The position numbers and the translations under genes were made by a program. The notes beneath the pieces were generated by a model. It saw only the letters and a list, made by a program, of their open reading frames with translations, had not been told where the DNA came from and did no database searches. From a bacterium (GTDB lineage Bacteria; Bacillota_I; Bacilli_A; RF39; UBA660), in contig JAQXOT010000011.1 of NCBI GenBank assembly GCA_029099845.1, positions 41,044 to 105,043 on the forward strand: a stretch of DNA of 64,000 nucleotides. Direction: 5' to 3'. Within the stretch, counting starts at the first letter, position 1. Every line of letters starts with the position of its first letter. Shown piece by piece: positions 42,380 to 43,525 of this stretch.

Positions 42380-43525
42380 ATGGATTTATTAGATAATAAA
42401 TTTTTGGATAGTATTAATGATGGATTTACTTCAGCAAAGACGCATATTTCTGATATTTGGAATGGTGGTGCGGCTCAATGTTTTAATTCGGCTTTTGATA
42501 GTGTTATTAATTCTATTGATAAGATATATGAGGCTATTGATAATTTTAATACTGTTTTGGATAAGTTGGCTATTTATAAGCAAAATCAAAATCAGATTGA
42601 AAATTTGCAAGCACAAATTGCAGAAGAAATGCAAAACCCAAGTGTAAAGCAGACAAACTCATATATGGAAAATGGTGTTTTAAAGACTTCGGTTGTTTAT
42701 GTCGTTGATCAAAATTTAATAGATTCGTTGCAATTGCAGATTGATAAGCTTTTGAAAGAAAATGAAATTTTAAAAACTGAGATGCAAGTTTTATGTAATT
42801 TAGTTTCTTCTGAGGAGTTATCTAATCTCACTCAATCAAATCTAAAACCTAAAAATAATAGTGATATTGCTCACAGGGGCTATAATCCTGGGGGTATAAG
42901 AGAAAATTCTATTGAGGCTTTTCGCTTGGCTGGTGAAAAAGGTTTTTGGGGATGTGAAACTGATGTTAGGTTTGATTCTAATGGCAATTTGATTTGCAGT
43001 CATAATACTCCACAGGGTAATGAAAATCCTCCTACTTTTGAAGAATATTTGGATATTTGTAAAGAGTATGGTATGACAGCTATTATTGATTTAAAATATG
43101 AGAATGGCTTTAAATGGAATTCTTATGATTCGGAATTGTCTCCTGCAATTATAAAAACAATTGAAGAAAAGGGAATGATGGATAGTTGTGTTATTCAAAC
43201 TAATTATTTTAATGATATTCCATTTATTAGATCTCAATCAGACGATGTAAGAATATGGTTGCTTGGACATAATACTGTTACTGATGAAAATATAGAATTA
43301 GCTCTTGAAAATAATGTTGAGTGTATTAATTTTAATAATACTGAAAATAATGCATATAGGATAAAAAAGGTTACAGATGCTGGAATTGATGCGTGTGTTT
43401 GGAATGTTCAAACAGAACAAGGAAAAAATATATTATTAAATGATGGGGCAAAATATATTATGTCAGATAATGTTTTGGGTATTACTCCTTATCAAGAGGG
43501 AGAAGAAGATTTTAATAATTTATAA
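42380..43525 (+). CDS. glycerophosphodiester phosphodiesterase (GDPD)-domain protein with WxG-containing helical N-terminal domain
   Basis: C-terminal half IAHRGYNPGGIRENSIEAFRLAGEKGFWGCETDVRFDSNGNLICSHN is a GDPD active-site region; the N-terminus has SDIWNGGAAQCF (a W-x-G-x-A-A-x-x-F motif as in WXG100/LXG) followed by a coiled coil. Confidence 0.65.
   Translation: MDLLDNKFLDSINDGFTSAKTHISDIWNGGAAQCFNSAFDSVINSIDKIYEAIDNFNTVLDKLAIYKQNQNQIENLQAQIAEEMQNPSVKQTNSYMENGVLKTSVVYVVDQNLIDSLQLQIDKLLKENEILKTEMQVLCNLVSSEELSNLTQSNLKPKNNSDIAHRGYNPGGIRENSIEAFRLAGEKGFWGCETDVRFDSNGNLICSHNTPQGNENPPTFEEYLDICKEYGMTAIIDLKYENGFKWNSYDSELSPAIIKTIEEKGMMDSCVIQTNYFNDIPFIRSQSDDVRIWLLGHNTVTDENIELALENNVECINFNNTENNAYRIKKVTDAGIDACVWNVQTEQGKNILLNDGAKYIMSDNVLGITPYQEGEEDFNNL

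Follow-up and report, generated by a model that had tools for sequence, protein, structure and literature searches.

A WXG-like helical head on a glycerophosphodiesterase from an RF39 bacterium recurs mostly on cell wall hydrolases that lack Sec signals

How might an enzyme that carries no recognizable signal peptide come to act on the bacterial cell wall? This question is raised by one gene in a 64,000-nucleotide stretch of DNA from a bacterium of the GTDB lineage Bacillota_I, Bacilli_A, RF39, UBA660 (assembly GCA_029099845.1, contig JAQXOT010000011.1, positions 41,044 to 105,043 of the forward strand), the whole of which is called the window below. The gene encodes a protein with a helical amino-terminal domain (N-domain) followed by a GDPD-type glycerophosphodiesterase domain. 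A first-pass annotation had described the N-domain as WXG100/LXG-like and had proposed that the protein is a secreted, lipid-targeting effector, or else the intracellular effector arm of an adjacent module encoding TelA and AAA+ proteins. The main new result of our analysis is that this N-domain is modular and is attached, for the most part, to enzymes that have the cell wall as their substrate and lack a Sec signal.

The open reading frame (ORF) is real and its domains are as observed before. It is complete and begins with an ATG codon that follows a stretch rich in purines (AAAGGGTAGGTAG); five codons before this ATG there is an in-frame stop, which makes a longer N-terminus impossible. An AlphaFold2 model built from an alignment of 53 relatives has a mean predicted local distance difference test (pLDDT) score of 87, and a model of the N-domain alone (pLDDT of 91) has identical elements. 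The N-terminal ~145 residues are a conserved helical module, and the C-terminal 220 residues form a GDPD barrel with a complete predicted catalytic set, in agreement with the earlier description of a complete domain bearing the HRG...E.D signature. The Pfam match to GDPD (PF03009) scores 41.9 bits against a gathering cut-off of 23.6 bits (E=1.6e-10) and is present in all 53 relatives, while an NCBIfam scan of the protein gave a weak GDPD match and nothing further. The modelled barrel matches solved GDPD structures in Foldseek (E about 1e-12, TM score of 0.7 normalised to the target), among them 2pz0 and 3no3, and its top matches include the C-terminal domain of phage K gp155 (9f5m), the phi812 spike (9eul), and B. 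subtilis GlpQ (5t91). Residues H165, R166, G167, N176, E193, D195, H208, D237, and K239 are invariant in the family and align with the catalytic His/Arg/Glu/Asp/His residues of the solved enzymes 2pz0, 1o1z, and 3no3.

Both halves of the protein are shuffled among its relatives, which supports the earlier view that it is modular in the manner of polymorphic effectors. A word-indexed search yielded 147 relatives; in all 120 of these that were listed, the GDPD half is 55-78% identical, and the N-half is common to 68 of the 120. The same GDPD domain is joined to no fewer than five unrelated N-termini, and in some cases papain-like or NlpC-like domains are present as well. These alternative heads include a related WSG-type head (in proteins of 613-653 residues) as well as 'LLxxGG', IF2_N-like, and papain-like types, and further GDPD relatives have NlpC-like C-termini. 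A hidden Markov model (HMM) of the N-domain also picks up adjacent paralogues in which CHAP/NlpC-like domains take the place of GDPD, such that a constant head is combined with variable C-terminal domains. Only two short proteins were returned by the word-indexed search with the N-domain profile, and a full HMMER scan of 1.84 billion representatives was needed to recover the family, which comprises at least 154 clusters at 50% identity. Among 73 long representatives, Pfam identifies the fused domains NLPC_P60 (17), CHAP (14), Peptidase_C39_2 (7), C70 (3), C39 (3), M23 (2), and Phage_lysozyme2 (2). In other words, nearly all of the catalytic domains attached to this head that can be named belong to wall hydrolases (NlpC/P60, CHAP, C39-like, M23, lysozyme, or GDPD).

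The family proteins are devoid of a Sec-type signal. No signal peptide is present in any relative N-terminus that was read, and a hydrophobic 12-mer is absent from the first 45 residues of 262 of 266 family proteins; the target protein has a hydrophobicity score of 0.7, versus 3.8 for two membrane-protein controls from the window. The relatives come from metagenome-assembled genomes (MAGs) labelled uncultured Bacilli, Candidatus Coprovivens, and uncultured Clostridia, and in our searches the N-domain family was encountered in metagenomes and MAGs only. No relative was found in 50,697 phage genomes (INPHARED, tblastn) or in IMG/VR, a fold search of BFVD with the N-domain gave nothing significant, and a second metagenome scan with the class-B N-domain profile returned a single 3.4-kb contig.

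Two other features of the family were noted. Tandem arrays of two or three paralogues have the WXG-like head in common and differ in their C-terminal domains, which are GDPD, CHAP/NlpC-like, or unrecognised. In addition, a domain of ~170 residues (...ESWCD...GDYVAVATD...LEIYTLW...) accompanies GDPD in many relatives, at about residues 450-619 of protein P0044 and internally in P0071, P0080, and P0086. As the C-terminal extension of the 613-653-residue relatives, this domain has no Pfam or PDB-sequence match, and a DPBB/3D-like fold is unsupported. The domain may be a further undescribed wall-acting unit.

The resemblance of the head to WXG100 proteins centres on residues 22-39 (HISDIWNGGAAQCFNSAF), which include W27-N28-G29. 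In the model, helix 7-26 and helix 30-85 are joined by a turn that contains this W-x-G motif, as the first-pass annotation had anticipated. All 53 full-length relatives have W27, and G29 is kept in at least 90% of both a 33-sequence N-domain alignment and 73 more distant members; the motif is therefore no chance match. The protein itself matches WXG100 (PF06013; residues 21-64 against profile positions 35-78) with E=0.0079 and 16.9 bits, which is below the gathering score of 27.3 bits. Matches with E <0.1 are present in 23 of the 53 full-length relatives (best E=8.9e-6; highest printed score 25.5 bits, for P0016), two relatives bear a precomputed PF06013 label in the database, and no other non-GDPD family recurs in more than seven of the 53. 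When the N-domain profile was compared with all PDB sequences, seven WXG100 proteins were returned with the W-x-G in register, namely S. aureus EsxA (E=0.004), 4lws, 12fa, 3zbh, 3gvm, 3o9o, and 4i0x, and the remaining matches were short generic coiled coils only. An hhalign comparison with five WXG100 sequences gave a probability of 34% (E=4e-4) over 49 columns, again in register; for one of these five, S. aureus EsxA, the central residues 22-74 agree with the PDB-search alignment. More distant family members have sub-threshold matches to WXG100, WXG100_2, and T7SS_signal, and in one case to LXG.

A WXG100-like N-terminus is thus supported by evidence that is sub-threshold yet convergent, in that all sequence tests agree and none is decisive. 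The LXG half of the earlier assignment did not hold. The query has no Pfam match to LXG (PF04740) even at E values up to 1, the 25 families with the most matches among the 53 relatives do not include LXG, and no LXG chain is among the profile matches to PDB sequences. The only LXG signal in the family is that of the distant member P0127 (E=0.0011, sub-threshold), and by any test run the head is not an LXG domain. At the level of its first hairpin, we read the head as a divergent member of the WXG superfamily, and it appears to run on into a coiled coil without a described counterpart. It has the helical hairpin with a conserved W-x-G in the turn that is a feature of WXG100 proteins, but it is the N-terminal part of a 381-residue enzyme and not a stand-alone protein of ~100 residues. 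The ~100 residues of coiled coil described previously are roughly right in extent and actually consist of helix 30-85, a β-hairpin (89-108), and helix 111-142, which together form an antiparallel, prefoldin-like coiled coil. The best Foldseek match of the N-domain is prefoldin beta (E=0.12, TM score of 0.7 normalised to the target), which reflects this helix/β-hairpin/helix part. Structural proof of a WXG/LXG fold was not obtained by this route, which yielded generic coiled coils (prefoldin, the LSD1 tower, and BAR domains).

Both the assignment of domains and the pattern across the family are firm, and from them we propose, with confidence that is about evenly balanced, that the gene encodes an exported, wall-directed glycerophosphodiesterase whose WXG-like head is a Sec-independent carrier. 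The helical module would serve in export or targeting, most plausibly by a type VIIb-like route, and its partners in the closest relatives may be three small helical proteins that are absent here. Once outside the membrane, the GDPD domain would hydrolyse glycerol-phosphate diester bonds, either those of wall or lipoteichoic acid or those of related glycerophosphodiesters in the envelope. Because the nameable domains fused to the head are nearly always wall hydrolases and the family lacks a Sec signal, a wall or teichoic-acid target is likelier than a membrane lipid, and the enzyme would act on wall-associated glycerol-phosphate polymers; the original label of lipid-targeting is unsupported. 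The biological role would be that of an autolysin-type remodelling enzyme or an antibacterial wall-degrading effector. A more far-reaching version, which we consider rather doubtful, is that the N-domain represents a type of export carrier that has not been described before and that occurs in uncultured Bacilli and Clostridia of the gut. The W-x-G hairpin and prefoldin-like coiled coil would then be dedicated to leaderless wall and teichoic-acid hydrolases, and the route would be either a type VII secretion system (T7SS) used for housekeeping wall remodelling or an unknown pathway. In the same reading, the GDPD gene would have been captured by a non-phage element that interrupts the sporulation gene yabG and would be lost from the mother-cell chromosome when yabG is restored.

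A number of results weigh against a WXG-type carrier for a wall-directed enzyme. No WXG100 or LXG match attains the Pfam gathering score in these scans, and the Foldseek search of the N-domain against PDB returned no WXG, LXG, or Lap structure. GDPD enzymes act on lysophospholipids too, and one such structure, 8ghi, is among the Foldseek matches of the barrel. In the window there is no essC-sized ORF and no Pfam match to FtsK_SpoIIIE, YukD, or EssB, and the same is true within 10 kb on either side of nine distinct homologue contexts. The first-pass statement that the window is devoid of T7SS genes is therefore correct, and its only ORF of at least 900 residues is Mfd. Across about 587 kb of retrieved DNA, ORFs of this size encode only Mfd, a class A penicillin-binding protein, and a glucosaminidase. 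An immunity-like partner, which the same annotation had suggested looking for, is also absent from the window, where the GDPD gene is followed by a 40-residue ORF and two serine recombinase genes. Because no T7SS or immunity gene is present in the window or the nine contexts, it is from the head domain alone that we infer export of the protein by a T7SS. Finally, the triad of small helical proteins described next is absent from the window, and none of its members significantly resembles a Lap, WXG, or LXG structure in PDB profile searches or the N-domain in hhalign.

This triad follows the GDPD gene in its closest non-identical relatives (55-61% identity, three genomes; loci L001-L004/L011, L010, and L013). 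The proteins are about 90-96 residues long, except that the first is extended at its C-terminus in L010 and L013. One member has weak matches to WXG100 (E=0.0015) and YwqH-like (E=0.009) families. As a means of identifying the triad as Lap or WXG homologues, the PDB profile searches and the hhalign comparison with the N-domain were uninformative. In L013 (9791-10654), the extension of the first triad protein is a weak match to a SleB-type wall hydrolase (Hydrolase_2, E=6e-4), and this locus may therefore encode a second helical head that carries a wall hydrolase. The genes downstream of homologues vary between loci and are often housekeeping genes. Homologues elsewhere are single or in tandem arrays among housekeeping genes, for example between rseP/HD and U32 peptidase genes.

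Other explanations can be weighed against this background. A classical T7SSb LXG/WXG antibacterial toxin, directed at the membrane phospholipids of competitors and paired with a cognate immunity protein, would account for the WXG-like N-domain, the shuffling of both halves, and the tandem paralogue arrays, and S. aureus lysophosphatidylglycerol phospholipase D is among the Foldseek matches. Such a toxin is nonetheless unlikely given that the query has no LXG match, that T7SS genes were seen at no locus, and that neither this locus nor most homologue loci, with their housekeeping surroundings, have an immunity-like ORF. Moreover, the recognisable cargo consists of wall hydrolases rather than the nucleases, NADases, and pore-formers typical of LXG toxins. 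We assign a similarly low likelihood to a housekeeping autolysin of the CwlO/PcsB/EnvC type, in which the coiled coil would be a docking or auto-inhibition module for a membrane complex such as FtsEX and export would follow another, unrecognised route. In this case the predicted long antiparallel coiled coil and the succession of coiled coil and NlpC/P60, CHAP, or M23 domain mirror FtsEX-controlled hydrolases (PMC6705773, PMC10214136), and homologues do occupy conserved chromosomal positions among housekeeping genes. However, hydrolases of this type have Sec signal peptides and the N-domain family has none, no ftsEX pair was seen beside the GDPD homologues, and the profile search that returned seven WXG100 proteins did not return PcsB, EnvC, or RipC, nor did Foldseek.

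The absence of a signal peptide or transmembrane segment is consistent with a cytoplasmic enzyme, either a GDPD for metabolism or lipid turnover that is oligomerised by its coiled coil, or the effector arm of an envelope-stress module formed by VWA, XpaC, TelA, and AAA+ proteins. The GDPD gene and the AAA+ gene before it share a strand and are separated by 213 nucleotides that contain no terminator-like hairpin, and the AAA+ protein is of the SpoVK/CbbX/EccA type. We regard a cytoplasmic enzyme as quite improbable because the sister N-domain proteins carry peptidoglycan hydrolases, whose substrate in the assembled wall is outside the membrane. The effector-arm version was rejected on reciprocal contexts: in other Bacilli MAGs the module ends at the AAA+ gene and unrelated genes follow, and in eight other contexts the GDPD homologues are without TelA/AAA+ genes next to them. 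The AAA+ protein also scores higher with SpoVK and CbbX than with EccA, and all three scores are far below the NCBIfam cut-offs. The least probable explanation among those considered is a lysin of a mobile element, whether a wall enzyme derived from a phage or an integrative and conjugative element or a leaderless enzyme for lysis of the mother cell at the end of sporulation. Leaderless mother-cell lysins do exist, as exemplified by B. subtilis CwlC. In favour are the position of the gene as cargo of the yabG element, the likeness of its GDPD fold to the tail-spike GDPD domains of phages K and phi812, and a weak PHROG tail-fibre match. Against such a lysin stand the negative searches of INPHARED and IMG/VR, by which a phage lysin was rejected, the lack of phage structural or conjugation genes in the element, and the location of all more distant homologues outside mobile elements. 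The exported, wall-directed enzyme with a WXG-like carrier remains the explanation that we favour.

Relative to known systems, the protein would be a variation on the theme of WXG/LXG-headed modular effectors, with wall-hydrolase cargo and an unusual head. It shares the hairpin with a W-x-G turn with WXG100/EsxA (PF06013, EsxAB clan) and with T7SS toxins that have WXG, LXG, or LDXD heads (PMC3482391). As in those toxins, an N-terminal helical module is joined to interchangeable C-terminal enzymes without a Sec signal, and small helical proteins are encoded beside its closest relatives. In contrast to WXG100 proteins, its profile match is sub-threshold, helix 1 is short (20 residues), and the hairpin continues into a β-hairpin coiled coil that is undescribed for WXG100 or LXG proteins. 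Unlike WXG/LXG toxins, it has recognisable cargo of wall hydrolases rather than nucleases or NADases, and no immunity gene or T7SS locus was observed. In the 2012 catalogue of toxin domains, the sole Tox-GDPD entry is that of a PVC-type toxin from Cyanothece (Zhang et al., PMC3482391).

On the catalytic side, the GDPD TIM barrel and its His/Arg/Glu/Asp/His set are like those of GlpQ (5t91), phage K gp155 and the phi812 spike (9f5m, 9eul), and WhyD, and an association with cell wall degradation is common to these teichoic-acid GDPDs, although sequence identity to them is only 14-20%. Of these enzymes, GlpQ is made with a signal peptide, WhyD is anchored in the membrane, and the phage domains belong to virion spikes; the protein described here has neither a signal peptide nor a membrane anchor and has a WXG-like helical head instead. 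The phage domains and GlpQ are precedents for a wall-directed GDPD. A published precedent that joins glycerophosphodiesterase chemistry to teichoic-acid tailoring is provided by S. pneumoniae WhyD (PMC9208761). The housekeeping contexts and the long N-terminal coiled coil followed by NlpC/P60, CHAP, or M23 are reminiscent of CwlO, PcsB, RipC, and EnvC, but those proteins have signal peptides and no W-x-G turn, and have no sequence or fold match to the N-domain. We know of no FtsEX-controlled coiled-coil hydrolase (CwlO, PcsB, RipC, EnvC) with a GDPD domain.

If the head is an export signal, then wall-degrading enzymes of at least 154 clusters (50% identity) would leave the cells of little-studied gut Firmicutes without Sec signals, and secretome predictions based on signal peptides would miss all of them. 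The cargo of WXG-type carriers would also extend from cytotoxic enzymes to peptidoglycan and teichoic-acid hydrolases, and would include a GDPD example in Firmicutes, beyond the cyanobacterial PVC toxin of the 2012 catalogue. The coordinates of the gene, its domains, and its surroundings are collected in Table 1.

Table 1. Features of the GDPD gene, its host element, and related loci. Positions are those of the window unless a locus label (L) is given.
Feature	Position	Strand	Basis or detail
Complete ORF: WXG-like helical N-domain, linker, and GDPD catalytic domain (381 residues)	42380..43525	+	ORF, Pfam, AlphaFold2
WXG100-like hairpin: helix 1 (residues 7-26), W27-N28-G29 turn (42458-42466), helix 2 (residues 30-85)	42398..42634	+	AlphaFold2; Pfam, residues 21-64
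β-hairpin (residues 89-108) and helix 3 (residues 111-142)	42644..42805	+	AlphaFold2 secondary structure
Disordered, low-confidence linker (residues 145-155)	42812..42844	+	pLDDT <50
GDPD TIM-barrel catalytic domain (about residues 160-370)	42857..43489	+	Pfam, Foldseek, invariant residues
Extended -10-like motif TGTATAAT in the 213-nucleotide gap before the GDPD ORF	42261..42268	+	Read from sequence
Terminator-like 15-bp hairpin running into a U-run, just 3′ of the GDPD stop	43542..43574	+	RNA fold
Five-gene module: SBP+VWA membrane protein, XpaC/Halogen_Hydrol, 400-residue unknown, TelA, SpoVK/CbbX-type AAA+	35933..42166	+
Intervening element (~11.3 kb) with the GDPD ORF as cargo	35711..47047	+	Junction reading
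40-residue ORF (43674-43796) and serine recombinases (43863-45434, 45409-46959)	43674..46959	+	Resolvase, Recombinase, Zn_ribbon_recom
yabG N-terminal fragment (first ~90 codons)	35453-35755		Peptidase_U57 profile positions 2-55
yabG C-terminal fragment (last 163 codons)	47067-47558		Peptidase_U57 profile positions 119-280
Tandem paralogue arrays	L019 10001-15106; L020 8757-11149; L029 7396-11128; L012 9908-17300
RVT_1 gene	L002-L004 8828-9946 (L004 2973-4091); L001 8813-9946		Intact in L002-L004; broken into two ORFs in L001

The element that carries the GDPD gene splits the gene for the sporulation protease YabG into two parts (35453-~35720 and ~47040-47558). The crossover cores at about 35711-35721 and 47037-47047 share AGATGnTGATA, and the junctions read ...HIDAD at the end of the left fragment and (A)DGDNDYLERC at the start of the right one; the predicted attB is CATATAGATGSTGATAATGATTATTTAG. 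The insert contains the five-gene module, the GDPD gene, the 40-residue ORF, and two large serine recombinase genes, which are arranged in tandem at the right end next to the yabG 3′ fragment. As in the skin element, a sporulation gene is interrupted and large serine recombinases are located at one end. The same arrangement is present in L008 and L009, which are two independent assemblies of the same species. By Pfam, the element has no phage structural or conjugation genes. No long direct repeats were found at its ends, and the predicted empty-site yabG junction had no match in JGI metagenomes. The 40-residue ORF (MESKKEETVIRVYDKNGKNVQDVILEAFEKFLKLKLENIK) lies directly 5′ of the recombinase genes, and L008 and L009 have a gene call of equal length at this position. 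Pfam, PADLOC, and PHROG gave no match for the ORF, which is a candidate recombination directionality factor.

In its organization the element is like skin (sigK) and the C. botulinum 'yin' prophage, in which a large-serine-recombinase element interrupts a mother-cell sporulation gene, and yin has the same target, yabG (PMC10747680). It differs from yin in being 11.3 kb in size and non-phage, with two tandem recombinases and a cargo composed of the envelope-stress module and the GDPD gene. Yin is the only published element that intervenes in yabG, and the authors of its study reported that, as of 2023, public genomes had yielded no further one (PMC10747680). The element described here is a second one that intervenes in yabG, without phage genes unlike yin, and it bears on the frequency with which sporulation genes are used as docking sites for cargo DNA.

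The five-gene module has an existence of its own. It recurs with its order unchanged in several Bacilli MAGs at ordinary chromosomal sites (L025 4373-10602; L026 and L027 4381-10557), where the AAA+ gene is followed by acetyltransferase or ABC transporter genes and by no GDPD or WXG gene. With the module found elsewhere without GDPD, and GDPD homologues found without the module, there is no dedicated functional link, and the GDPD gene is independent of the adjacent operon. Co-transcription by read-through from the module is possible. Its first protein combines a transmembrane segment with SBP_bac_11 and VWA domains, the 400-residue protein has an N-terminal transmembrane segment, and the AAA+ protein has an unknown N-domain of ~270 residues; its resemblance to EccA is that of the shared CbbX-like ATPase core only. 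TelA and XpaC have been tied to daptomycin resistance in E. faecium (PMC6811118). A role in anti-phage defence was rejected, as PADLOC was negative for the GDPD, TelA, XpaC, and VWA proteins and gave generic AAA+ matches only for the ATPase.

The GDPD gene may also have its own promoter, to judge from the extended -10-like motif TGTATAAT upstream of it, although a consensus promoter scan found promoter-like sites to be no more frequent than in shuffled sequences. The hairpin 3′ of its stop codon has a predicted stability of -13.9 kcal/mol (z = -4.5; none of 200 shuffles equally stable), and a scan for GC-rich terminators did not pick it up. At the locus of the GDPD homologue P0022, a reverse-transcriptase gene (RVT_1) is located 55 nucleotides upstream. 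Outside the element, the region 31856-34454 of the window contains three paralogous ORFs of ~200 residues with an N-terminal hydrophobic segment and 25-32% mutual identity, followed by a 226-residue ORF whose SPSM...GDNN motifs resemble those of a type I signal peptidase. These ORFs have no Pfam match at E values up to 0.001, and their layout recalls a SipW/TasA-type arrangement.

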